The notes beneath the pieces are model-generated. The model was not told the origin of the DNA, ran no database searches, and saw only the letters and a list, made by a program, of their open reading frames with translations. A DNA stretch of 64,000 bases from Flavobacteriales bacterium (lineage in GTDB: Bacteria > Bacteroidota > Bacteroidia > Flavobacteriales_C > GCA-002722245), in NCBI GenBank assembly GCA_038154685.1, contig JAYPYW010000001.1:36761-100760 (forward strand). Direction: 5' to 3'. Shown here one piece after another: positions 1,033 through 12,149 of this stretch. A program made the translations under genes and the position numbers. How positions within the stretch are numbered: position 1 is the first letter of the stretch; each line of letters opens with the position of its first letter.

Positions 1033-4000
1033 TTGGGGATGAAAAAAATTCTATTCCATCTTTTTCTATTATTATCTGGAACTTTGTTATCGCAAAGTTA
1101 CCACATGCGTACGCTTACCCAAGAGGATGACAGCTTAGCAGACAACACCGTAAATGATCTTCTTCAGGACAGAAGGGGGTTAATTTGGATGGCAACCGAT
1201 CAAGGGATTTCACAATGGAACGGTATCGAATTCTCCCAAATAATTAAAACCAAAGATCTTCCAGCTAAAGAAGTACAATGTTTATATGAGGATGTAAAAG
1301 GTCATTTGTGGATTGGTACATCAGGCGGTTTATCTGTTTATGATGGCTATAACTTAAAAAATTTCACCGAAGAAGATGGTCTTCCTTCCAATGCTATTAA
1401 ATCAATCGTTGAAGATGGATTTGGCCGTTTATGGATTGGTACTCACAGAGGTGGATTATGTACTTTAGATAACTTTTCGAATGATGGGACTAAGTTTTTA
1501 AAATATGAACTCAGATCCAGATCAATACAAAACCTTACTATAAATAAAGTAATAGAAACTCCTGACGCAAAAGTTTATGCTGGTACGGACATTGGGTTGT
1601 TTGAAATAGACAATGGAAATGATAAGTTATTTGGAGCCAGACAAGGCGTAAGAGGCCAGGTTGAAGACATAATTGAAGATGTTAATGGGGATATTTGGAT
1701 TGGAACTGATGAAGGTCTGATTCTTAAATCCAATACAAACATCAAAAAATTCCACATATCTACAGGATTTCCCATAAGAGGTGTTAAATCCTTGGAGATT
1801 GATAAATCTGATAACATATGGATTGGAACTCTTATCAACGGAGTTATCAAACTAAACATCAATACCTTCGAATACAAAGTTTACAACAATAACAACAGTA
1901 ATCTTTGTGGTAACTCAGTGAGCGCCATTCTTGAGGACGCGAATGATAATATTTGGGTCGCAGCAAGCGATATGGGTGTTTCCAAACTTACAGGAATATC
2001 ATTTTCTTATTTAAATGAAAAAAATGGTTTGCCAAATGAAAAAATCAACTCACTAATTCAGGGCCAAGATGGAAACTTCTGGTTTGGTACGGAAAGAGGA
2101 TTGATATGGTCAGATCAAAAGGATTCAATATATGTATTTAATAAATCCAATGGTTTACCAACCAATTATGTCTCAACTGTTTTCGAAGATGATGAAGATA
2201 ACATATGGGTAGGTACGATTGCGGGACTTACAAAAATCAGAAACAGAGAAATTGTTAAAACCTATGGTTTTATGGATGGATTTTCTCCTATTACATGTAT
2301 TTCCCAGGATGATGAAGGAATAGTTTGGGTAGGAACTAAAGGTGGTGGAGTTGCCCAAATTGATGGAGAAAAAATCAAATTCCTAAGAATGATCGATGGT
2401 TTGCCAAACGGAGATATTACAGCTGTTACAAAGGACCAATCTGGCAAGATTTGGATTGGAACAAGGAATACTGGTATCATTTGGTATAACGGGATTGAAT
2501 TTGCCACTATAACAGAGGAGGACGGGCTATTACCTTCCAATAAAATTAATACCATGATTAAGGGTCCAAGGAAAGAGATTTACATTGGAACTAGAAATGG
2601 TTTAACTATTTATAATGAAAGCAGACAAGGAAGTGAAACTAATATTACTACTATTACCTCAAAGAATTCAAAACTCTCCTCAGACAATATTAAATCTTTA
2701 ATTGTTGATGAAGACAATGATTTGTGGGTGGCTACGAATGCGGGCTTAGACCGTATTTCTTTTAACCCACCGCAAGTTACTCGACAAACAGGGGAATTGA
2801 TTTCAGAAATCAAGCACTTTGGAAACACACATGGAGTAATCGGAAGGAAAATTAACACCAATGCCGTTTGTGAGGATTTTGATGGTAATGTATGGTTCGG
2901 AACGACAATTGGAGCGCTTAAACATGATAGGACGGTAGATAATACTAATGATGTTGCTCCTCAGGTTTTCTTTACAGGGTTAAACCTTAATGGACAAAAA
3001 ATAGATTGGAAAAATAGAAACTTTGAAGTTGAACCTTGGAGTGGGATTCCAAAAAACCTTGTACTTCCTTATGATTCTTCTACCGTTACTTTTGAGTTTG
3101 TTGGAGTAAACCATGATAATACTTCAAACGGGACAGCTTATTATTGGTATCTGCAAGGATATGAAGAACCTAATTTCATCCCTAAATTCGAAAACGAAAT
3201 TGAGTACAAAAAAATCCCTCCTGGAGATTATACTTTCATCGTATACTCTTGTAATGGTGATGAAATTTGTAGTGATAAAACACCTGCTAAATTCTCTTTC
3301 ACTATTTCACCACCCTTTTGGCAAGAAATCTGGTTTATTTCATTGCTTGTAATTGTTGTAATTGGATCAATCATTCTTTTCATCCAGTTCAGAGAAAGAA
3401 AACTAGTTGCTGAAAGAGAATTATTGGAAGAAAAAGTAAAAGAACGTACGCAGGAGGTTGTAGATAAAAACAAACAGCTTGAATTAGTTAACCTTGAAAT
3501 GGTTGCTAAAAACAAAGAGATTGAAGAAAAAAATAACGACCTGAACTCAAGTATTAGGTATGCTTTAACAATTCAGCAAGCATCCTTCCCACCTGTTCAG
3601 GATTTAAAAGATCAAATTCCAAACTCATTTATTTACCATCTACCAAGAGACATTGTTTCTGGAGACTTTTATTGGTACAGAAAAGTTGGATCGAAATTCG
3701 TTATTGCATGTGCCGATTGTACAGGGCATGGTGTTCCAGGTGCTTTAACTAGTATGATTGGAATTGCCCTTTTAAATGAAATTGTCGGGGGTAATAAAAT
3801 AACTGATCCTGCATTAGCCCTTGCTAATCTTGATAAAGGTATTTTAAAGGCTTTCGAGAACAGTGAATCTGAAACTAATGACGGGATGGATATTAGTTTG
3901 ATTACTGTTGATATTGAAAACAAGGTTATTGAATATGCTGGTGCTTACCGACCATTAATTATGGTTAGAGATGGAGAGTTAGCAGAACACAAGGCTACTA

Positions 4001-4284
4001 AAATGTCCATTGGGTTTAAAGACGTTCCAAACAAAGTTTTTGAAAAAACTACACTTCAATTCCAAGAAGGTGATTGCTTCTACATGTTCTCAGATGGTTA
4101 CCCTGATCAATTCGGAGGAGAAAAAAATAAGAAGTTTAAAACTAAAACCATGAAAGAGATGCTAGTTCAAGCTGCATCTATTGATATGGCCTCTCAAAAA
4201 GAAATTGTTGACCAACGATTAAGAGAATGGATGGGAGATAACGAACAAGTTGATGACATACTTGTTATGGGGATAAAGTTCTAA
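1033..4284 (+). CDS. Membrane sensor protein: signal peptide, two-component-regulator beta-propeller repeats, Y_Y_Y domain, TM helix, coiled coil, C-terminal SpoIIE/PP2C-type Ser phosphatase domain
   Basis: N-terminal MKKILFHLFLLLSGTLLSQ signal peptide. Many W.GT..GL repeats of the Reg_prop type, then YYWYL...DYTF of the Y_Y_Y type. Hydrophobic segment EIWFISLLVIVVIGSIILFIQF, then a K/E-rich coiled coil. C-terminal DFYWY...CADCTGHGVPGAL...NDGMDISL matches SpoIIE/RsbU PP2C phosphatase motifs. Confidence 0.8.
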   Translation: MGMKKILFHLFLLLSGTLLSQSYHMRTLTQEDDSLADNTVNDLLQDRRGLIWMATDQGISQWNGIEFSQIIKTKDLPAKEVQCLYEDVKGHLWIGTSGGLSVYDGYNLKNFTEEDGLPSNAIKSIVEDGFGRLWIGTHRGGLCTLDNFSNDGTKFLKYELRSRSIQNLTINKVIETPDAKVYAGTDIGLFEIDNGNDKLFGARQGVRGQVEDIIEDVNGDIWIGTDEGLILKSNTNIKKFHISTGFPIRGVKSLEIDKSDNIWIGTLINGVIKLNINTFEYKVYNNNNSNLCGNSVSAILEDANDNIWVAASDMGVSKLTGISFSYLNEKNGLPNEKINSLIQGQDGNFWFGTERGLIWSDQKDSIYVFNKSNGLPTNYVSTVFEDDEDNIWVGTIAGLTKIRNREIVKTYGFMDGFSPITCISQDDEGIVWVGTKGGGVAQIDGEKIKFLRMIDGLPNGDITAVTKDQSGKIWIGTRNTGIIWYNGIEFATITEEDGLLPSNKINTMIKGPRKEIYIGTRNGLTIYNESRQGSETNITTITSKNSKLSSDNIKSLIVDEDNDLWVATNAGLDRISFNPPQVTRQTGELISEIKHFGNTHGVIGRKINTNAVCEDFDGNVWFGTTIGALKHDRTVDNTNDVAPQVFFTGLNLNGQKIDWKNRNFEVEPWSGIPKNLVLPYDSSTVTFEFVGVNHDNTSNGTAYYWYLQGYEEPNFIPKFENEIEYKKIPPGDYTFIVYSCNGDEICSDKTPAKFSFTISPPFWQEIWFISLLVIVVIGSIILFIQFRERKLVAERELLEEKVKERTQEVVDKNKQLELVNLEMVAKNKEIEEKNNDLNSSIRYALTIQQASFPPVQDLKDQIPNSFIYHLPRDIVSGDFYWYRKVGSKFVIACADCTGHGVPGALTSMIGIALLNEIVGGNKITDPALALANLDKGILKAFENSESETNDGMDISLITVDIENKVIEYAGAYRPLIMVRDGELAEHKATKMSIGFKDVPNKVFEKTTLQFQEGDCFYMFSDGYPDQFGGEKNKKFKTKTMKEMLVQAASIDMASQKEIVDQRLREWMGDNEQVDDILVMGIKF

Positions 4285-4610
4285 TTTACCGGAACAATTT
4301 CAGCCAATTCTAAGCGAAGAAAAGCAAACTCTAGTAGTTCAATACTTTCATTCATTTCCTTTCTATTTAATGCTATCATTAAATTAGAAACAGGTGTTTT
4401 CAGGAATATCTTATCGATTAATTTATTGGACTTGTCTCCATATTCTTCTAAAGTGGCCTTCAAAGCCCTTAAAAATATTTTTGCTTGATCCTTTTTGAAT
4501 TTTAATATAAGGGTTCCGATACCTATAATTAACTCATCAGATACTCCGCAGTACATTACATTACCTATTGAACTGGAAGAGATTAATTTATGACTACAAT
4601 CTTTCATCAT
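4281..4610 (-). CDS. Hypothetical small protein (109 aa), possibly the last gene of the MoxR cluster operon
   Basis: ORF only. It overlaps the stop of the convergent sensor gene by 4 nt. No recognizable motif. Confidence 0.3.
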   Translation of the reverse strand: MMKDCSHKLISSSSIGNVMYCGVSDELIIGIGTLILKFKKDQAKIFLRALKATLEEYGDKSNKLIDKIFLKTPVSNLMIALNRKEMNESIELLEFAFLRLELAEIVPVN

Positions 4611-4700
4611 TTTATTTTTAGTTTCTTTCTAAAAACAAATATGAAATATTCAAACACTTATTGCAATCGCTAAAAAAAGTGAAAAAATGATAACTATCTA

Positions 4701-5987
4701 TTAAATTAACCCTCTAGATTTTAACTCCAAGTATTTGTTAATTGTATCTACATTCAACTTTTGTGGAGTTGTTAAGATGGTATTTATACCATATTTCTGT
4801 AGCTCGGCAGCAATGGTTTGTTTTTCAATAACCGCTTTTTGGGCCATTGTTTGAACATAAATATCTTCAATGGTTTCCGCCTTCTTATTGGCTTTTTCAA
4901 CCAAACCAGTATTCTCAAAAAAGATAACTACCAATAAATGAAGCTTGCTTATTTTTCTAAGCATCGGCATTGCGCGCTCCATGGCGTATAAACTCTCGAA
5001 ATTTGAATACAAAAAGAGTAAACTTCTACCTTTTATATTTTGACGAACACCATAATAAAGCATTTCATAATTAGCATCGTTAAACCTTGTTTTTTGTCGG
5101 TAAAGATTTTCTAAAAGTTTTCTCAATTGACCGCCTAATTTCTCTGCTTTTACGTGAACCCCCAACTTATCAGAAAAGGTCATCAATCCAACTTTATCAT
5201 CTTTTCGAAGCGCAATATTTGAAATTACTAATGCAGAGTTAACGCTATGATCCAACAAAGTCATATCATCAAACGGCATCTTCATGGCTCTACTCTTATC
5301 AATAATGGAATAAACACTTTGTGAACGTTCATCCTGATATTGATTAACCATGATCTCCCCTTTCCTACTGGTTGCCTTCCAGTTTATTTTACGAAAATCA
5401 TCTCCTTGAACATAAGGTTTGATTTGCTCAAACTCCTGCGCATTTCCTAATCGTCTTACCTTCTTAACTCCGTGATTTAAATTAGAGTTAGTAAATACCT
5501 TCAATTCATATTCTCTCATTAACCTAACTGAAGGATATACCTTTGAAGCAAAATCCTGAGAGTAACGAATCCTCCTTTGGGCCACTCTTAAGGAAGTTCC
5601 TACAAATAAGTTCAGCGCACCAAATTTATACTCTCCTCTTTTAACCGGCTTTAGGTAATAATCAATTATTTCCTCCTCTCCAGGAGCCAGATTTAAAAAG
5701 CGCTTAAAATCTCTAATTTGAAACTGGTATGGCAATTCATCAATAACCTTAAGAGTAACTGGCATATTGTAATGATTCTTAACCAGTATTCTTACATGAT
5801 TGTCTTCTCCTAAATTCAATTGCTCTTTAACAATCCTTTCTGCTTCAATTTTTGTTGAGCTGCTGTATAGAATAAGTATGTCTACAAACAAATAAGCAAA
5901 AACAAGCGCCAGGAATAATTGGGCAAAAAAGAACAGCGAACTCCATAAAAAACTTGCTACAAAGAAAGCAGCAGCTATCCCTAACAA
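4701..5987 (-). CDS. DUF58 family protein (MoxR partner; two N-terminal TM helices)
   Basis: DUF58 signature region RRLGNAQEFEQIKPYVQGDDFRKINWKATSRKGEIMVNQY. Two N-terminal hydrophobic helices. Sits directly downstream of the MoxR ATPase gene. Confidence 0.8.
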   Translation of the reverse strand: MLGIAAAFFVASFLWSSLFFFAQLFLALVFAYLFVDILILYSSSTKIEAERIVKEQLNLGEDNHVRILVKNHYNMPVTLKVIDELPYQFQIRDFKRFLNLAPGEEEIIDYYLKPVKRGEYKFGALNLFVGTSLRVAQRRIRYSQDFASKVYPSVRLMREYELKVFTNSNLNHGVKKVRRLGNAQEFEQIKPYVQGDDFRKINWKATSRKGEIMVNQYQDERSQSVYSIIDKSRAMKMPFDDMTLLDHSVNSALVISNIALRKDDKVGLMTFSDKLGVHVKAEKLGGQLRKLLENLYRQKTRFNDANYEMLYYGVRQNIKGRSLLFLYSNFESLYAMERAMPMLRKISKLHLLVVIFFENTGLVEKANKKAETIEDIYVQTMAQKAVIEKQTIAAELQKYGINTILTTPQKLNVDTINKYLELKSRGLI

Positions 5988-6043
5988 AAGGAAAAACCAA
6001 TTGGTTTAATATAAGTTCGATATGAATTTATTTGTTTTCAAGA

Positions 6044-7159
6044 TTATCTAGGCACTTCAATTTTTTGTACAATTTCAGCAATTACATCCTCTGCTGAAAT
6101 CCCTTCCATTTCGGTTTCTGGCGTAAGAATTATTCTATGATTTAAAACAGGTTCACACACATATTGAATATCGTCCGGAGTAACAAAATCTCTTCCTCTA
6201 ACTGCAGCAGCTGTTTTAGCAGATCTTAAAATAGATAAGGAGGCTCTTGGAGATGCTCCTAAATATAAACGAGCATGATTTCTTGTTTCAGCGACTATTT
6301 TAGCAATGTATTCAATTAACTGATCCTCAATTTTCACCTCCTCAATTAAACCTTGAAACTCCTCAATATCAGCAGCTGTTAAAACCGAATTAATGTCATC
6401 GAAGGATACTTCCTTAATGTTGTTTTTAAACCTTTGTAAAATTGCAACCTCATCCTGAATTCCTGGATATTCTAGTTTAATTCTAAAAAGAAATCTATCC
6501 AATTGAGCTTCAGGCAAGCGATAAGTTCCTTCCTGCTCTATTGGGTTTTGGGTGGCCATTATAAAAAATGGAGGATCTAACTTAAAAGTTTCTCCATCGT
6601 TAGTTATTTGTCGCTCCTCCATTACCTCAAAAAGTGCAGCTTGAGTTTTAGCAGGCGCTCTGTTAATCTCATCAATCAACACGATATTCGAGAAAATAGG
6701 TCCTTTCTTATAAGTGAATTCCGATGTTTTAACATTAAAAACAGAAGTTCCCAGCACATCAGAAGGCATTAAATCTGGCGTAAACTGAATTCTTGAATAA
6801 TCTACCGAAAGGGTTTTAGAAACCACTTTAGACGTCATTGTTTTGGCAATTCCTGGAACCCCTTCTAGTAATACATGTCCACGAGAAAAAATTGCCAAAA
6901 TAATTTGATCAATTAGCTCATGCTGACCAATAATCATTTTCCTTGCTTCGGCTTTAACTTCTTCAATCTTATTTTGAAACTTTTGAAGCTTTAATCGTGA
7001 TTCAGGTACAAAAGGCTTTGGAGCTTCCTCAACCATCTCTTCTTTTGGATCAATTATATCCTCTGATGGCACTTGTTCACTATTTACCGGCGCTTCATTA
7101 GAAGTATTATTTACTTGCTCCTCTTGATTTTCTGACTGGTTATTTTCGTTTAATTCCAT
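6044..7159 (-). CDS. MoxR-family AAA+ ATPase (AAA_3) with acidic N-terminal extension
   Basis: Walker A reads GVPGIAKT (the GxPGxAKT MoxR form), followed by VLIDEINRAP and a C-terminal MoxR lid. About 60-aa E/Q/N-rich N-terminal tail. Confidence 0.9.
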   Translation of the reverse strand: MELNENNQSENQEEQVNNTSNEAPVNSEQVPSEDIIDPKEEMVEEAPKPFVPESRLKLQKFQNKIEEVKAEARKMIIGQHELIDQIILAIFSRGHVLLEGVPGIAKTMTSKVVSKTLSVDYSRIQFTPDLMPSDVLGTSVFNVKTSEFTYKKGPIFSNIVLIDEINRAPAKTQAALFEVMEERQITNDGETFKLDPPFFIMATQNPIEQEGTYRLPEAQLDRFLFRIKLEYPGIQDEVAILQRFKNNIKEVSFDDINSVLTAADIEEFQGLIEEVKIEDQLIEYIAKIVAETRNHARLYLGASPRASLSILRSAKTAAAVRGRDFVTPDDIQYVCEPVLNHRIILTPETEMEGISAEDVIAEIVQKIEVPR

Positions 7160-7161
7160 AT

Positions 7162-8466
7162 TTACTTCGCTTTTTTGTAAAAATCGTTTAATCTCTTGTA
7201 AAGGTTAACCAGGTATTCATCCGATACAGCGGTTATGTTTTTCCCTCCTTTAAAATGTTTTAATAAGGCTTTTATTTCTTCCTCTTCAACGCCAGATTTC
7301 TGAGCTAATCTTTTAGCATAAGATGCGTCATCATTGTAAGCAACATAGTACTTAGCACGCATCTTATTTTTAAAGATTTTCTCCATATGGACAATGAGCT
7401 TATTATGCTGATTTTGTTTTAAGTACAACCTTGCAATTGTTTCAGTAAATTCCAAGGACGAATTGTCGTTAGATTGTGTGGTTGGAATAATCTTCTGCTC
7501 TCTTTTCCCTCTGAAAATAATAAATAGAACTACTGCAAAAATGATTAATAAGTAAGCCCACCTTAATTGCATATTTGAAAGTAGGAAATTGAAAGAACTA
7601 TCACTCGATAGCCACCTTCCTGTGCTATGATTGCTATTACTGTGATCGATTTCCATTAATTCATTTTCATAAACTCCTGTTGTATAATTATCAAACAAAA
7701 TTGCACTGTTTGGAAAATATGAAAGCACTATTTCTACATATTCTCGCCCTTGATTTGTAGAAAGGTATTTATTGGTAAAAGCTTGAGGAACTGTATGTAA
7801 TAAGATCTTCCCACCACCGTATTCAAACTCAATGAAACATGGTCGGTATTTTGCTTTTCCTCTCACATTCCCATTTGTGTAAGAAATACCATAATTTACA
7901 TATCTCCAACGCCTAGTTTTCGGTTTGCCCTTTTCCCAGTTGATTAAGTTGTATTCATTAGGGAAGTTTTCGTTGTTAAAACTTAAAACAATTAAAGTAT
8001 CGCTGGTGTAATCAAAGTAATCGGCACTGTTATAATTAACAAATAAATTATCCAATAACCTTGCAGGCAAAAACTCTGCAGCAATAAAAACATTATTCCC
8101 GGCGTCTACAAAGTCAAGTAGATCCTGAACTTCAGACGGAAATAAATTCAAAGACTTCCCCACAAACATATAGGTTACCTCCTTTGCATCTAATTGTAAT
8201 TCTGTACTGTCAAAATATTCCTCTACTGAAACATCAATATCCTTAACAGTGTGATTTGGCAAGCCTTCTTGGAGTATCTCTCTAATAAAGTAGGTTCCGT
8301 AAGGATGTTTACTTTTCGAGTTATAATCTTTCTCCCAATTAATTGATTCAACTTTTCGGTCTGAAAGTTCCTTCGATTCTGCATCCTCATTCCCAACAAA
8401 ATATATCAACCCTCCCAGTCCGAAAACCAGAACAGCCATAATTAAGTATTTTACTGAGTTATTCAA
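7162..8466 (-). CDS. Membrane protein, DUF4350-like (N-terminal TM, second TM near residue 300)
   Basis: Topology and size (434 aa; TM helices at residues 9-25 and about 295-312) match the DUF4350 proteins that accompany MoxR/DUF58 in this conserved cluster. Family assignment is from memory of the cluster, not from a search. Confidence 0.5.
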   Translation of the reverse strand: MNNSVKYLIMAVLVFGLGGLIYFVGNEDAESKELSDRKVESINWEKDYNSKSKHPYGTYFIREILQEGLPNHTVKDIDVSVEEYFDSTELQLDAKEVTYMFVGKSLNLFPSEVQDLLDFVDAGNNVFIAAEFLPARLLDNLFVNYNSADYFDYTSDTLIVLSFNNENFPNEYNLINWEKGKPKTRRWRYVNYGISYTNGNVRGKAKYRPCFIEFEYGGGKILLHTVPQAFTNKYLSTNQGREYVEIVLSYFPNSAILFDNYTTGVYENELMEIDHSNSNHSTGRWLSSDSSFNFLLSNMQLRWAYLLIIFAVVLFIIFRGKREQKIIPTTQSNDNSSLEFTETIARLYLKQNQHNKLIVHMEKIFKNKMRAKYYVAYNDDASYAKRLAQKSGVEEEEIKALLKHFKGGKNITAVSDEYLVNLYKRLNDFYKKAK

Positions 8467-9465
8467 TTATTTAGTGATTGCTTCAATTAGTTTTTGAAAA
8501 TGCTTTTCCACCACTTCAAAATCGCTGGATCCAATTTCATATTTACCATACCAAATGAATTCGTAACTTTTAATGGCTTCCTTAAAATCAGCAAAGAAAG
8601 ATTGACCTTGAACTTCAATTTGGTAATGGTAATTCGTTTTCCTTTTTTTCCATTGGATAAAGCCTTTGTCGGATAATTCCTTGATCACCCAAACAAAATA
8701 AAGTCGTGTTGCACTTCGGAAATCATTATTTGATTTTGCAGCTAATATTTTCTTCTCCAATTCAGACAATTGTACCGCTTCAGGGTTCATGTCCTGGTCG
8801 TATAATATTTTATGGCCTTCTCCCTCAATTGGAGTTTTTGCAAATAACATATACCCAGCAAAACCAAGGATTCCGGCTATTAGAATAATTAAGAGTAATT
8901 TGAAAAAACTACCATTAAGGTTAGCATTAGACTGTTCATTGTACTTTTTTTCTTGTCGAGGATCACTTTTGCTTTTATCCTCTTTCCTTTTTAACCTACT
9001 TTTTTCAATAGCAGCTCGTCTGTTTTCATCCCTTTTGTATGAATTCCGTCTTTTAAATGCCTTTCTTTCGTACCTTCTTGAATCTGATTGAATACCATCA
9101 TTCGAATTTTTTTGCCCGCTTCCTCTATGATATTCTCTGGTGGTTATTGTTCCCGAAATGGAATCATATTCCCAAATAACATAAGTATCCCCCTTTTCAA
9201 CCCCATAACCTAATCCAAACTCGGAACTATCTCCCTCCAGGCGCTTTTGCTCCATTTCTTCTATTAAATCAACTTCTTTTTTAAGGCGTTCATATTCATC
9301 ATTTTTGAACGTCTTTTTCTCAACCACTTCATTATCCTCATTTAGGAAAAGAGGTAATTCTTCCTCTCCCTTTAAAAACAAAGAAGTGAACAAAAAGACG
9401 GCTATTGATATGAACCTAATAATCTCCCTCATCAGCTTGTTCGAAAAGATTATTTTTTGACCCAA
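8467..9465 (-). CDS. Membrane-anchored protein, DUF4129-like C-terminal domain, with charged coiled-coil middle region
   Basis: N-terminal hydrophobic segment and a mid TM helix (FFKLLLIILIAGILGFAGYMLF). A K/R/E-rich segment of about 80 aa. The C-terminal about 120 aa is taken as DUF4129 from its position in the cluster. Start is adjacent to the stop of the downstream gene. Confidence 0.45.
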   Translation of the reverse strand: MGQKIIFSNKLMREIIRFISIAVFLFTSLFLKGEEELPLFLNEDNEVVEKKTFKNDEYERLKKEVDLIEEMEQKRLEGDSSEFGLGYGVEKGDTYVIWEYDSISGTITTREYHRGSGQKNSNDGIQSDSRRYERKAFKRRNSYKRDENRRAAIEKSRLKRKEDKSKSDPRQEKKYNEQSNANLNGSFFKLLLIILIAGILGFAGYMLFAKTPIEGEGHKILYDQDMNPEAVQLSELEKKILAAKSNNDFRSATRLYFVWVIKELSDKGFIQWKKRKTNYHYQIEVQGQSFFADFKEAIKSYEFIWYGKYEIGSSDFEVVEKHFQKLIEAITK

Positions 9466-11317
9466 AATCCTTTAATCTCGAGTAAAGAGATTTAGCTTGA
9501 ATTCTTTCTCTAATGGAATGAAATTGAATAATCAAACCAACAACCACAAAGGATACAATTAAAGAGAAGAAGGCATAATACAATGCAAAGTTTAACGAGT
9601 TAGCTAAAGCTGAGATGTCATCAACAAATGGTTTAACATGATCCAAAATAAACTCTGATAAGAAATCAATATTAAAAGTAGCATTAACGCCAAACACCTG
9701 CGAAAAAAGATAACCCACAACAAAAACAATTAACGGGATTACCATTTGTAATAGGAACATTCCTACGGATCCAAACCATGATTTAAACACCAAGTTAAGG
9801 CCTCCCTTTAAGTTAGAAGTGTGTTTTTCATCCTCATAAAATCCAGCGTAGGAAAATTGGAATATGAATGGAACCAATAAGATTCCAAAAAATATCATGA
9901 ATGATTTAGGCCACAACTGAACCAAAAGAACGAATAATATTGTTGGCCAAAGTTTTAAAACCCCAAAAGCACTAAATTTCAAATACTCGATAATTCTAAA
10001 TTCTTGTTGTTTTCTGTATAAATAAACCGCATAATAAACGGCTAAGAATAAAGGAATCACCAATCCCAAAGATGCAAAATAATGAAACCCTGTAGCACCT
10101 TCTCCTCCCAAAACTTCTTTGATATTCACCCACCAATAAAGCTCCTGGTTATAACTTTCGTGATTAAAAAAATGGAGCGCTGGAATTAAAAGCATCAAAG
10201 GAAAACAAAAAAGCATCCAACCCTTAAAAAAATTACTAAACGATTGCCTATAAAGGTTAAGTGAATCGTTAAAAATCTCTCCAACCTCTCTTACTTTTTC
10301 TAATGCAATAGTTTTGTTTTTAACGTGTGGAATATCATCGTTAAAAACAAAATGACCTGGTTTAATTTTAGTGCGATAAAGGTAAATGGGATACGCCACG
10401 AAAAAAAAACAAATAAATGCTAAAGAACCCAAAACTATGATATACTTAAAAGCCATTGGCATTCCCGTATACCTAGTTACGCTCCCTTCGATAAACCCCG
10501 AAAAGATTAAAATGAAAACACAACTTAACGCAATTTTAAAACTTCTTTTTGCTGATATTCTTAATGATTGTAATCGGGTATATGTTCCAGGAAACAACAA
10601 ACCTCCTCCTAGGACTAACCCTGCTCCTCCCGCAATAATGATAGTTGCTATTTCCAAAACCCCATGAATCCAAATGATCCACATAGCCTCTGATAAAACT
10701 CCTTTGTGGTAGAGGTAATAATGGAAGGTCCCCAACATAATTCCGTTATGTACCATTATAATTACAGGAGGAACTCCAGCTGCAATTCCGGTAATATAAG
10801 TCCGGGATGCAACCATGGTATTATTGTAAGTAATATTAAAGCTCGACCATGCTGAATTACCATGCTGATGATAAACAGCCATTGGATCTCCATTGGCAAT
10901 ATTCTCATCTGTCATTGAAATATATCTTTCCCCCATAATTTGAGTCGCGTAATCGATATCATTAGCAGTAGATACAATTCCAACCATCATGGAGCTCATA
11001 AAAATGAAAAGTGCAAGTACCATAGCTTTCCAGCTTCTTGCAAACTCCACTGGTAAACCATGCGTCCAAAAATTAATAAACTTTTTTATCCTAACCTTTC
11101 GGTTACGGTTAACTTTTAGAAATACTAACTGGGAAAGGTAATTTAGGTAAACTCTAACTGATCTTTTTGCATAAAAAGTCCTCGAATAACTCAAGTCATC
11201 AGTGATTTCCACAAACAAATCTGTCAGTTTATCTGGATCAGCATTTTCATTTTGCTGCATCTGCTCAAACTTCTTCCAGCTTTTCTTTTTTTGTTTTATA
11301 AAAGTGGTTTCCCTCAA
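9416..11317 (-). CDS. Polytopic membrane protein, SpoIIM-like (DUF95) N-terminal half plus about 300-aa additional multi-TM C-terminal domain
   Basis: Residues about 90-330 resemble 'stage II sporulation protein M'/DUF95 (GxxxGxxxG-rich helices, RYTGM motif). 633 aa is about twice the usual size. The 3' end overlaps the next gene by 50 nt. Confidence 0.6.
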   Translation of the reverse strand: MRETTFIKQKKKSWKKFEQMQQNENADPDKLTDLFVEITDDLSYSRTFYAKRSVRVYLNYLSQLVFLKVNRNRKVRIKKFINFWTHGLPVEFARSWKAMVLALFIFMSSMMVGIVSTANDIDYATQIMGERYISMTDENIANGDPMAVYHQHGNSAWSSFNITYNNTMVASRTYITGIAAGVPPVIIMVHNGIMLGTFHYYLYHKGVLSEAMWIIWIHGVLEIATIIIAGGAGLVLGGGLLFPGTYTRLQSLRISAKRSFKIALSCVFILIFSGFIEGSVTRYTGMPMAFKYIIVLGSLAFICFFFVAYPIYLYRTKIKPGHFVFNDDIPHVKNKTIALEKVREVGEIFNDSLNLYRQSFSNFFKGWMLFCFPLMLLIPALHFFNHESYNQELYWWVNIKEVLGGEGATGFHYFASLGLVIPLFLAVYYAVYLYRKQQEFRIIEYLKFSAFGVLKLWPTILFVLLVQLWPKSFMIFFGILLVPFIFQFSYAGFYEDEKHTSNLKGGLNLVFKSWFGSVGMFLLQMVIPLIVFVVGYLFSQVFGVNATFNIDFLSEFILDHVKPFVDDISALANSLNFALYYAFFSLIVSFVVVGLIIQFHSIRERIQAKSLYSRLKDFGSKNNLFEQADEGDY

Positions 11318-11402
11318 TCCAATTTAATTAAGGGTTAAAAATCTTGTTTATCCATCGGAATGCAAAATTATTTGTATTATTTATTCTTAATTTGGCACCT
11401 AA

Positions 11403-12149
11403 ATGCGAACAATCAGTATAAATACCACTCAAAACGTAGCTATCGATTATGAATTAGCTGGTATTATGGAAAGAATCCTTGCTTTCCTGCTGGACACGGT
11501 AATTGTTGTTGCATACATAGTGATTGTTTCTACGTTCTCACTTTTAGGAGGTTTAATCAGCTTTGATGATGGAGGAATTGGCTCTTTCATTGTTTCGGTA
11601 ATATTCATTTTCCCAGTTTTTATTGCTTATCACTTATTTTGTGAAGCCTTATGGAACGGACAATCAATTGGGAAAAAGGCATTAGGAATTAAAGTAGTTA
11701 AATGTAATGGTCAGCAAATGGACATGGGCGATTACGGAAAAAGATGGATGTTTAGACTTTTAGATATCCTTTTATCTGCGGGCTCTGTTGCTGTACTAAC
11801 CATTTTAAGTAATGACTATAATCAAAGATTAGGAGATATTGTTGGAGATACATGTGTTGTAAAAACCCGACCAACAAATCAGATTTCTATTAAGGATATT
11901 CTTAAAATAAAATCGCAAGAAAATTACGAACCCAAATACGAAGGAGTTGTGCGGTTTACAGAAGAAGATATGTTGTTACTAAAAAACACACTCGATCGTG
12001 CAAAATCTACTCCTAATGATCACTACAGAAAACTACTTGCTGAACTTACAGAGAAAATTTGCAAGGAGTTAGAAATCACAAAAATCCCTAAAAAGAGAAC
12101 AGCTTTTCTTAAAACTATTTTGAACGATTACATTGTTCTTACTAGATAA
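11403..12149 (+). CDS. RDD family membrane protein
   Basis: R..D..D pattern in MERILAFLLDTVIVVAYIV...GKKALGIKVV, with three TM helices. Divergently transcribed from the MoxR cluster. Confidence 0.75.
   Translation: MRTISINTTQNVAIDYELAGIMERILAFLLDTVIVVAYIVIVSTFSLLGGLISFDDGGIGSFIVSVIFIFPVFIAYHLFCEALWNGQSIGKKALGIKVVKCNGQQMDMGDYGKRWMFRLLDILLSAGSVAVLTILSNDYNQRLGDIVGDTCVVKTRPTNQISIKDILKIKSQENYEPKYEGVVRFTEEDMLLLKNTLDRAKSTPNDHYRKLLAELTEKICKELEITKIPKKRTAFLKTILNDYIVLTR

Follow-up and report, generated by a model that had tools for sequence, protein, structure and literature searches.

The locus considered here, part of a 64,000-nucleotide stretch of DNA from a member of the Flavobacteriales (the window), raises the question of whether a compact set of genes around a MoxR-type AAA+ ATPase encodes a single system and, if so, of what kind. 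A single conserved inner-membrane machine is encoded here, in which the cytoplasmic AAA+ ATPase MoxR is joined by six membrane-protein modules: DUF58, DUF4350, DUF4129, SpoIIM, a second polytopic module referred to as SpoIIM-C, and RDD (Table 1). The identity and composition of this seven-module system are very nearly certain. The gene content given in the preliminary description of this DNA, which was made from the sequence alone, was borne out by Pfam matches to DUF58, AAA_3, DUF4350, SpoIIM, and RDD, as was its view that the cluster has no demonstrated biochemical role, since full-text literature searches revealed no experimental function for it. The present copy is an ordinary member of its kind, with a few lineage-specific additions.

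Table 1. Features of the locus, with positions numbered from the first nucleotide of the window
Feature	Positions	Strand	Size or extent
DUF6686 small protein	4281-4610	-	109 aa
DUF58	4701-5987	-	428 aa
MoxR	6044-7159	-	371 aa
DUF4350 gene	7162-8466	-	
p5 (putative divergent DUF4129 protein)	8467-9432 from ATG (8467-9465 from first TTG)	-	
SpoIIM fusion gene	9416-11317	-	633 aa
SpoIIM-C (second polytopic module)	9431..10321	-	residues 333-629
SpoIIM module	10358..11317	-	residues ~1-320 of the 633-aa protein
Divergent RDD/SpoIIM intergenic region	11318..11402		85 bp
RDD family	11403-12149	+	248 aa, polytopic membrane protein

The five reverse-strand genes reported to diverge from the RDD gene were confirmed, but the same interval also contains a sixth reverse-strand gene, which codes for the DUF6686 protein. 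The p5 and DUF4350 reading frames abut and a 2-nt gap separates DUF4350 from MoxR, as originally described, whereas the gap between MoxR and DUF58 is 56 nt rather than 57 nt, and a SpoIIM/p5 overlap of 50 nt presupposes a p5 start at the first TTG; p5 homologs begin at an ATG equivalent to position 9432, which reduces the overlap to 17 nt. The RDD/SpoIIM intergenic region presumably serves as the promoter region for both directions. No sigma-70 consensus site was found in these 85 bp, which is to be expected because the host belongs to Bacteroidota.

The same gene set is found, in the same order, in most of 80 genomes from Bacteroidota and allied phyla (those tested were Ignavibacteria, Chlorobiales, Rhodothermales, and Balneolales). 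With synteny counted in these 80 related loci wherever the flanks permit testing, the seven modules occur in a fixed order in 58 to 77 of about 70 to 78 testable loci, which represent five or more phyla of the Bacteroidota group: DUF4129 is present in 77 of 78, SpoIIM-C in 73 of 76, SpoIIM in 68 of 71, MoxR in 68 of 75, RDD in 61 of 69, and DUF58 in 58 of 70. This synteny is far beyond chance. Alphaproteobacteria, Gammaproteobacteria, and Actinomycetota have permuted versions, and those in Catenovulum, on Rhizobium and Paracoccus plasmids, and in Nocardia are complete. The suggested conservation across phyla thus holds for all the groups tested here (Bacteroidota and the allied phyla, Alpha- and Gammaproteobacteria, and Nocardia) and, through published annotation, for Mycobacterium (PMC8191103). 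In a minority of genomes (~10 to 17% of the loci), MoxR and/or DUF58 lie apart from the membrane genes, so their coupling is not obligatory at the level of gene order; nothing else favors a coincidental adjacency of genes that form no functional unit. The gene order is kept across classes and phyla, loci with a permuted order still have the gene set, and there are gene fusions and overlapping or abutting reading frames; such a coincidence has a negligible probability and is effectively refuted by the synteny across the 80 related loci. No further flanking gene family is common to more than 20 of these loci, which indicates that no external client, regulator, or effector is co-inherited with the cluster; across phyla, only the seven modules remain together.

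The MoxR protein combines AAA_3 (209 bits) and AAA_lid_2 (89.5 bits) Pfam domains with an acidic N-terminal extension of ~45 aa, and among solved structures, 2R44, from Cytophaga hutchinsonii, is the nearest (E value of 2.5e-84). Its Walker A, Walker B, and remaining nucleotide-site motifs are kept across 71 orthologs; judging by its sequence, it is a catalytically intact cytoplasmic ATPase. The presumed adaptor of MoxR, the DUF58 protein (56.7 bits, with a cutoff of 23.4), starts with a hydrophobic hairpin, as seen in hydropathy analysis, followed by a vWA-like domain with a weak VWA_2 match at residues 228 to 305, and its archaeal counterpart has been described as an Ig-like plus vWA protein (Makarova et al. 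2015, PMC5898192). The statement that no VWA protein is present was therefore wrong, DUF58 being the vWA-type partner, and no extra VWA proteins of the BatA/BatB type are found in the cluster. In 63 orthologs, the MIDAS position of DUF58 reads ID-K-[G/S]-R-[V/A]-M, a degenerate motif, so the canonical vWA client grip may not apply. The topology of bacterial DUF58 is uncertain: the N-terminal hairpin is a predicted anchor, Makarova et al. regarded the archaeal vWA protein as secreted (PMC5898192), and a bacterial vWA domain that faced the periplasm could not bridge to MoxR.

The intact MoxR motifs would also suit a chaperone that inserts a cofactor into, or activates, an unlinked membrane or periplasmic enzyme, similar to NorQ/NorD, CoxD/CoxE, and CbbQ/CbbO, with the membrane proteins merely localizing the chaperone. 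The experimentally understood MoxR–vWA pairs are chaperones of this kind. NorQ/NorD has been cited as one such pair (PMC11834572). However, DUF58 has not kept the DxSxS MIDAS, which is the client grip of these vWA adaptors, the 80 loci show no conserved candidate client enzyme beside the cluster, and five membrane modules would be a large investment for localization alone, all of which makes this option unlikely.

A MoxR gene followed by DUF58 and combined with membrane-anchored partners is also found, within the same phylum, in the Bacteroides Bat operon (MoxR–DUF58–BatA–BatB–BatC–BatD–BatE). The pair is at the front of that operon and at the end of the present one, and the partners are the VWA proteins BatA and BatB and the TPR proteins BatC and BatE there but DUF4350, DUF4129, SpoIIM, and RDD here. 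The common core could point to a functional analog that provides oxidative or heat stress tolerance with other membrane partners, but Bacteroidota commonly have a separate Bat operon, so the present cluster is probably not redundant with it. Although mutations in Bat operons cause stress sensitivity in Bacteroides, Francisella, and Riemerella (PMC11834572), neither the BatA/BatB VWA proteins nor the BatC/BatE TPR proteins are encoded in the present cluster, and a Bat-like function is very unlikely.

The DUF4350 protein (45.5 bits, with a cutoff of 30.4) is predicted to comprise an N-terminal anchor, a periplasmic GATase1/GIFT-like domain, a single transmembrane (TM) helix, a juxtamembrane motif that is conserved (consensus, KRRQRIIPV) and reads GKREQKIIPT here, and a helical domain in the cytoplasm. 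The GATase1/GIFT domain has no conserved Cys or His residue and is non-catalytic; folds of the GIFT type are assembly or oligomerization platforms in IFT52, OST48, and GH42 enzymes. Of the two family assignments proposed earlier for this protein and its neighbor p5, the former stood, whereas p5, placed in DUF4129, had no Pfam match even at an E value of ≤10, at the Pfam level the kind of outcome that the preliminary description had named as refuting, and was rescued by profiles and synteny. Weak DUF4129 matches were detected in 12 of 34 close p5 homologs, 7 of 10 sampled remote relatives likewise matched DUF4129 weakly (one of them above the cutoff), and p5 itself matches the same-position DUF4129 protein in 79 of the 80 related loci. 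This evidence indirectly supports p5 as a divergent member of DUF4129, one that carries an additional periplasmic domain. From its N terminus, p5 is predicted to have a signal peptide and a lineage-specific periplasmic domain, followed by a strongly basic helix, a single TM span, and, in the cytoplasm, the helical bundle of DUF4129 (nt 8473-8769); both helical tails, that of DUF4350 and that of p5, are predicted to be on the same side of the membrane as MoxR. The same arrangement, with a C-terminal DUF4129 domain past the last TM helix, is the Pfam architecture of TgpA. The MoxR–DUF58–TgpA triad, for example, PA2875-PA2874-PA2873 of Pseudomonas aeruginosa (PMC3507681), has in common with the present locus that a membrane protein with a periplasmic domain is co-transcribed with MoxR and DUF58; in contrast to the triad, the present cluster has no transglutaminase domain, carries DUF4129 on a small single-span protein, and additionally includes DUF4350, SpoIIM, and RDD.

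The 633-aa “SpoIIM” is SpoIIM fused to a second polytopic protein. The SpoIIM module has a basic cytoplasmic N terminus followed by a polytopic domain (according to hydropathy) that matches Pfam SpoIIM at residues 102 to 282 (104.5 bits), and its orthologs carry an N-terminal DUF8413; the SpoIIM-C part is matched by a profile of 73 stand-alone same-position genes (E value of 1e-12). SpoIIM-C is encoded separately in most other loci, and its orthologs weakly resemble GPDPase_memb, DUF7544, UPF0259, and DUF7847. The same fusion is found in loci L003, L085, and L091, and Catenovulum has a fusion of a polytopic and a DUF4129-like protein; these fusions argue for physical association. The RDD gene (67.4 bits) is divergent and upstream in most loci. 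In Ignavibacteria, Rhizobium, and Paracoccus, it closes the operon in the same direction as the other genes, and in Catenovulum, it is the first gene of the operon; its retention in such varied positions shows that RDD belongs to the unit. The SpoIIM protein had been called channel-like, but nothing points to a channel. The SpoIIM domain is common to the DMP engulfment complex of Bacillus subtilis; Bacteroidota are non-sporulating, there is no SpoIID or SpoIIP partner within the present cluster, and, by analogy, only a membrane-scaffold role could plausibly carry over.

The same annotated families, RDD, SpoIIM, DUF58, MoxR, and DUF4350, make up the mycobacterial regions Rv3689–Rv3695 (the moxR2 region) and MAB_0386c–0392c, and such genes are co-regulated in M. 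chelonae (PMC8191103). Nocardia farcinica carries DUF4129–MoxR–DUF58 with RDD and SpoIIM adjacent. These clusters differ in order and orientation, with SpoIIM and RDD downstream of DUF58, and their DUF4350 sequences are too diverged to be detected by the Bacteroidota profiles. In M. tuberculosis, Rv3694c (SpoIIM) and Rv3695 (RDD) were co-purified with the divisome protein Rv0954 (PMC8093794).

A related archaeal cluster, like the present one, combines a DUF4350 protein (signal peptide, large extracytoplasmic GldG/flavodoxin-like domain, and C-terminal TM helix) with an adjacent MoxR ATPase and a vWA-type protein. It also has S-layer or Ig-like proteins (arCOG02884 and others) that are absent here, whereas the bacterial cluster adds DUF4129, SpoIIM, the second polytopic module, and RDD. 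For the archaeal DUF4350–MoxR–vWA cluster, Makarova et al. (2015, PMC5898192) predicted a role in secretion, as a novel secretion system, or in membrane remodeling, and remarked in passing that, in bacteria, SpoIIM homologs have a vWA protein and a COG0714 ATPase as neighbors. If the present locus encoded a system for secretion or transport, SpoIIM, RDD, and SpoIIM-C would form the conduit, DUF4350 would be a GldG-like periplasmic accessory, and MoxR–DUF58 would energize or gate the export of a polymer or protein, in keeping with the GIFT/GldG-type fold of DUF4350 and the many polytopic membrane proteins encoded here. However, the cluster keeps no substrate gene, outer-membrane component, or glycosyltransferase with it across the 80 loci, and none of the membrane proteins of the cluster matches a transporter family above the threshold. 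To our knowledge, MoxR ATPases do not act as translocases, and an export function appears improbable.

Our preferred interpretation, held tentatively and with less than even confidence, is that the system could be an ATP-driven device for the assembly or remodeling of an inner-membrane envelope complex. The DUF58 protein, anchored through its N-terminal hairpin, would dock the MoxR hexamer at the membrane, in line with other MoxR–vWA pairs, and the motor could then act on the cytoplasmic tails of DUF4350 (the KRRQRIIPV motif and the helical domain) and DUF4129 (a HEPN-like bundle). ATP hydrolysis may in this way alter the assembly or conformation of the periplasmic domains of these two proteins and of the membrane scaffold made up of SpoIIM and RDD. 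The clients would be the membrane proteins of the cluster itself, and the output would be the upkeep or remodeling of a cell-envelope complex rather than metabolism, defense, or gene regulation. A role in membrane-protein maturation or remodeling, as proposed in the preliminary description, is plausible.

Extracytoplasmic domains are also paired with MoxR–vWA in the MoxR–vWA–beta-propeller (Esr-type) systems, and a comparable device for signal transduction or threat sensing in the envelope would have periplasmic domains that sense a cue and a MoxR–vWA pair that sets the threshold of a cytoplasmic response; for Actinobacteria, an Esr pathway has been described (bioRxiv 10.64898/2026.09.08.750141). 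The MoxR protein does match the bpMoxR model (50 bits), but beneath its far stronger AAA_3 match. Across the 80 loci, the cluster is not accompanied by any conserved kinase, FHA protein, transcription factor, or effector, the PADLOC defense models give only generic AAA+ similarity, and the cluster looks single-copy and vertically inherited rather than variable; a sensing device is accordingly quite unlikely.

A beta-propeller plus PP2C phosphatase gene adjoins the cluster in this lineage. Such a neighbor would suit a sensing function, but it was observed only in close relatives and is not among the annotated cluster neighbors in Pedobacter or Saprospiraceae. The DUF6686 gene (31.1 bits), which follows DUF58 on the downstream side after 90 nt, occupies the same position in the close relatives L085 and L091 but occurs in none of the 80 distant loci; it is a lineage-specific neighbor that doubtfully belongs to the system.

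The locus in the window is an ordinary member of a conserved, uncharacterized variant of the MoxR–vWA membrane systems. Its lineage-specific features are a SpoIIM fusion, the periplasmic domain of the DUF4129 protein, an acidic extension of MoxR, and a DUF6686 neighbor; beyond such fusions and extensions it contains nothing unusual and offers no surprise to a specialist. The ORF map of the region comprises six reverse-strand genes and one forward gene, and the DUF58, MoxR, DUF4350, SpoIIM, and RDD proteins exceed the curated Pfam cut-offs. A search of NCBIfam returned no specific model for any membrane protein of the cluster. The junctions between the genes are broadly those listed in the preliminary description, except that the gap between MoxR and DUF58 is 56 nt, not 57, and that the 50-nt overlap of the SpoIIM gene with p5 (the ORF of the DUF4129 protein) presumes a TTG start: in all homologues of p5 the start is an ATG located twelve codons downstream of this TTG, which reduces the overlap to 17 nt. 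GC content is even (about 0.32-0.36 over the cluster region), its profile there gives no sign of a foreign insert, and a scan for sigma-70 promoters and terminators yielded fewer sites than in shuffled sequence.

Features of the cluster and of its immediate surroundings in the window
Feature	Coordinates	Strand	Basis or content
Reg_prop/PP2C gene	1033-4284	+	1083 aa; Reg_prop beta-propeller and Y_Y_Y repeats, TM helix, C-terminal SpoIIE/PP2C phosphatase domain
DUF6686	4281-4610	-	109 aa; Pfam 31.1 bits
DUF58	4701-5987	-	Pfam 56.7 bits, cut-off 23.4
MoxR	6044-7159	-	AAA_3 209.1 bits and AAA_lid_2 89.5 bits
MoxR N-terminal extension	7025-7159	-	residues 1-45
DUF4350	7162-8466	-	Pfam 45.5 bits, cut-off 30.4
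p5	8467-9465	-	332 aa; divergent DUF4129 by homology and synteny
p5 periplasmic domain	8900-9360	-	residues ~36-189
SpoIIM protein	9416-11317	-	633 aa; Pfam SpoIIM 104.5 bits, residues 102-282
RDD, divergent	11403-12149	+	Pfam RDD 67.4 bits

The neighborhood, which had been predicted to recur in related genomes, is indeed conserved, with the same set and order of genes in most of the best 80 related loci and with permuted sets beyond the Bacteroidota group. A scan of one genome per species with the conserved juxtamembrane motif of DUF4350 (consensus KRRQRIIPV; a narrow alignment) detected at least 590 species of the Bacteroidota group, and the best 80 of these loci come from several classes of Bacteroidota as well as from Ignavibacteria, Chlorobiales, Rhodothermales, and Balneolales. 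When only those of the best 80 loci are counted whose flanks allow the test, DUF4129 is present in 77 of 78, SpoIIM-C (the second polytopic module, discussed below) in 73 of 76, SpoIIM in 68 of 71, MoxR in 68 of 75, RDD in 61 of 69, and DUF58 in 58 of 70. Among the best 80 loci, the order is always SpoIIM, SpoIIM-C, DUF4129, DUF4350, MoxR, DUF58. The RDD gene is mostly divergent and located upstream; in Ignavibacteria it is found co-directional after DUF58 and therefore belongs to the unit. No other flanking gene family is common to more than 20 of the best 80 loci, and the conserved unit consists of exactly seven modules: RDD, SpoIIM, SpoIIM-C, DUF4129, DUF4350, MoxR, and DUF58. A minority of genomes encode MoxR and/or DUF58 at another location; loci L005, L012, L027, L051, L065, L078, and others carry the SpoIIM-to-DUF4350 genes without MoxR and/or DUF58 after them, so the ATPase module can be unlinked.

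Outside the Bacteroidota group, a tblastn search of plasmids with DUF4350 gave no match, and a search with DUF58 led to proteobacterial and actinobacterial clusters. According to the annotated records, the arrangement is RDD–SpoIIM–hypothetical–DUF4350–MoxR–DUF58 in Catenovulum adriaticum (Gammaproteobacteria), DUF805–DUF4129–DUF4350–MoxR–DUF58–SpoIIM–RDD on plasmids of Rhizobium leguminosarum and Paracoccus aminovorans, and DUF4129–MoxR–DUF58, adjoined by RDD and SpoIIM, in Nocardia farcinica. The annotated Rhizobium and Paracoccus plasmid clusters show no gene of its own for the second polytopic module. The DUF805 product preceding these alphaproteobacterial clusters is a small membrane protein (3282-3728 in the Rhizobium locus L088 and 3051-3491 in the Paracoccus locus L089). 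In mycobacteria, the co-regulated genes MAB_0386c-0392c are annotated as RDD, SpoIIM, DUF58, MoxR, and DUF4350 and have been equated with Rv3689-Rv3695 (PMC8191103); the range of the cluster apparently includes M. tuberculosis. Two published observations bear on it circumstantially: Rv3694c (SpoIIM) and Rv3695 (RDD) were co-purified with the divisome protein Rv0954 (PMC8093794), a hint that the cluster may be enriched at the septum or poles, and one D-cycloserine-resistant mutant of M. tuberculosis carried a non-synonymous mutation in Rv3690, presumably a cluster member judging from its gene number only, together with a second mutation (bioRxiv 10.1101/114116). The MoxR/DUF58 genes of the M. 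smegmatis SigF regulon (PMC4694148) look like a different MoxR cluster and were set aside.

Most of the related genomes have two genes at the SpoIIM position, one encoding SpoIIM (about 325 aa) and the other a further polytopic protein (about 300 aa), referred to here as SpoIIM-C. The window gene is a fusion of SpoIIM and SpoIIM-C: a profile built from 73 second genes that stand alone aligns with residues 333-629 of its product (E 1e-12). Saprospiraceae and the close relatives L085, L091, and L092 have the fused form as well. SpoIIM-C resembles GPDPase_memb, DUF7544, UPF0259, and DUF7847, in each case below the threshold. The window cluster differs from the SpoIID/SpoIIM/SpoIIP engulfment machine in lacking both the partners and the sporulation context, as neither SpoIID nor SpoIIP is found in the cluster or conserved in the examined flanks of the best 80 loci. 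In C. adriaticum, the position of SpoIIM-C and DUF4129 is occupied by a 515-aa protein (L087, 3997-5544, pCadTS8_2) with a polytopic N-terminal half, a TM helix, and a C-terminal region resembling DUF4129. This protein may represent the SpoIIM-C and DUF4129 modules joined in one chain; no homology of its N-terminal half to SpoIIM-C was detected. Such gene fusions, of SpoIIM to SpoIIM-C in the window and of the polytopic to the DUF4129-like region in Catenovulum, support a physical association of the encoded modules.

The preliminary description assigned p5 to DUF4129 and named failure of a profile search to place it there as an outcome that would speak against its reading. In formal terms this is what Pfam returned: no family is matched even at E<=10, and the DUF4129 cut-off (24.8 bits) is not reached. 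The evidence from homologues nevertheless points to DUF4129, which is the commonest family match among the close homologues of p5, albeit a weak one (12 of 34; best E 7e-4). The profile of these 34 homologues matched 6033 representative proteins in a library of 1.84 billion, with matches confined to the TM helix and C-terminal domain, and 7 of 10 sampled remote relatives have DUF4129 at the aligned position, one of them above the cut-off (27.3 bits). The gene at the equivalent position is recorded as PF13559 in both Pedobacter and Saprospiraceae, and p5 matches such a Saprospiraceae protein in a phmmer comparison with E 4e-14. Furthermore, p5 directly matches the equivalent-position protein in 79 of the best 80 related loci (E down to 2e-22). 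The homologue matches, the profile, the PF13559 records, and the same-position matches together identify p5 as a divergent DUF4129 protein. The periplasmic domain at its N-terminus is confined to its own lineage and contains an invariant motif, DSSxFGxGYGVExG…Y…DS, with a strongly basic helix (residues 128-176) after it; no family or fold was matched by this domain, and AF2 confidence is low. The HEPN RNase motif Rx4-6H is not conserved, which speaks against an HEPN RNase. A common origin of the cytoplasmic tail domains of DUF4350 and DUF4129 was rejected, as hhalign detects no relation between them; the DUF4350 tail spans residues 319-434 and the DUF4129 domain of p5 residues 225-332.

MoxR retains intact Walker A, Walker B, and remaining nucleotide-site motifs. 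Conservation across 71 orthologues covers GVPGIAKT, LIDEINRA, ATQNP, LPEAQLDRF, and GASPRAS; the last three presumably represent sensor 1, the arginine finger, and sensor 2. The closest solved structure is that of a Cytophaga hutchinsonii protein (PDB 2R44; E 2.5e-84), and sequence searches turned up no solved structure for DUF58, DUF4350, or the DUF4129-like protein. At its N-terminus the window MoxR carries about 45 additional residues, acidic and of low complexity, that the Bacteroidota consensus lacks; its counterparts in the relatives L085 and L091, with 356 and 366 aa, are similarly long. DUF58 has a hydrophobic N-terminus of about 42 residues, and a central proline in the orthologue consensus suggests a two-helix hairpin. 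The earlier statement that the cluster has no VWA protein does not hold, because DUF58 carries a vWA-like domain (a weak VWA_2 match to residues 228-305, 18.7 bits, below the cut-off of 27) and is itself the vWA partner, albeit an atypical one; what is missing is the extra VWA proteins of the BatA/BatB type. At the MIDAS position, the window protein has IDKSRAM and its 63 orthologues ID-K-[G/S]-R-[V/A]-M, and the canonical DxSxS is not conserved. Together with the absence of any co-conserved enzyme, this degenerate motif counts against classical cofactor insertion, and a chaperone for an unlinked enzyme is unlikely. Nearly all homologues of DUF4350 are annotated as PF14258. An enzymatic role of DUF4350 as a GATase was rejected, given that the Cys-His-Glu catalytic triad of class I glutamine amidotransferases is missing.

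A full-text literature search found no functional study of the MoxR–DUF58 membrane cluster. The nearest published description (Makarova, Galperin and Koonin 2015; PMC5898192) concerns the arCOG01314-type DUF4350–MoxR–vWA cluster, which similarly combines DUF4350, a COG0714 ATPase, and an Ig/vWA protein in one predicted operon. In contrast, its S-layer/Ig-like membrane proteins (arCOG02884 and relatives) are missing from the window, where the partners are DUF4129, SpoIIM, and RDD. Experimental data exist for the Bat (PMC11834572), TgpA (PMC3507681), and Esr/beta-propeller (bioRxiv 10.64898/2026.09.08.750141) systems, which have only the MoxR–vWA core in common with the cluster. A Bat-like stress system is very unlikely: the window cluster has no VWA (BatA/BatB) or TPR (BatC/BatE) genes, and none are conserved in the flanks. 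The MoxR–vWA–beta-propeller ternary conflict systems (Kaur et al. 2020; Esr) differ in that their sensor and effector or kinase/FHA modules are not co-conserved with the cluster. A signaling device appears quite unlikely, since no effectors or regulators are co-conserved and the PADLOC scan was negative; the same observations count against defence, which was rejected for want of any PADLOC model match beyond generic AAA+ similarity.

With one cytoplasmic ATPase and one vWA-type, two single-span, and three polytopic modules, the cluster is a genuine unit that is widely inherited. Its flanks contain no co-inherited client, regulator, or effector common to more than 20 of the best 80 loci, and a hidden conserved one was rejected on these counts. 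The retention of the same seven modules with no obvious client suggests that the cluster acts on its own membrane proteins as substrate. DUF58 would tether the MoxR hexamer to the membrane, and the MoxR motor would work on the DUF4350 and DUF4129 tails in the cytoplasm, controlling how their periplasmic domains and the SpoIIM/RDD scaffold are assembled, with an envelope assembly or remodeling device as the outcome. In its fullest form, this proposal would make the seven modules an unrecognized multi-phylum machine of envelope biogenesis, in which an AAA+ motor is mechanically coupled via DUF58 and two single-span tails to a GIFT-domain platform in the periplasm and a membrane scaffold of SpoIIM and RDD. 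The machine would act where the envelope grows or divides, and Rv3689–Rv3695 of M. tuberculosis would be among its members; as a whole, the proposal in this form is unlikely to be correct. That the modules instead form a secretion or transport system is likewise improbable. The preliminary description, which saw a candidate system for membrane-protein maturation or remodeling, is confirmed in its observation and borne out in part in its interpretation. MoxR–vWA pairs are widespread, and few have known clients; this cluster is a widely distributed and testable “known unknown” whose function computation alone cannot resolve. Working out its role would provide a function for six families (DUF58, DUF4350, DUF4129, non-sporulation SpoIIM, RDD, and the GPDPase_memb-like module) and could reveal a new coupling of cytoplasmic ATP hydrolysis to envelope events.

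The DUF6686 gene, located 90 nt downstream of DUF58, lies within the originally reported interval and had gone unmentioned. It follows DUF58 only in the close relatives L085 and L091, which are syntenic across the whole neighborhood, and was found at none of the best 80 distant loci. Convergent on it, with a 4-nt overlap of the ORF ends, is the Reg_prop/PP2C gene, which is syntenic in L085 and L091 and absent among the annotated cluster neighbors in Pedobacter and Saprospiraceae. Next to RDD lie small membrane proteins (L001, 5766-6599), in Pedobacter those of DUF5684 and DUF2752, and one flanking family of about 136 aa is found at 20 of the 80 loci.
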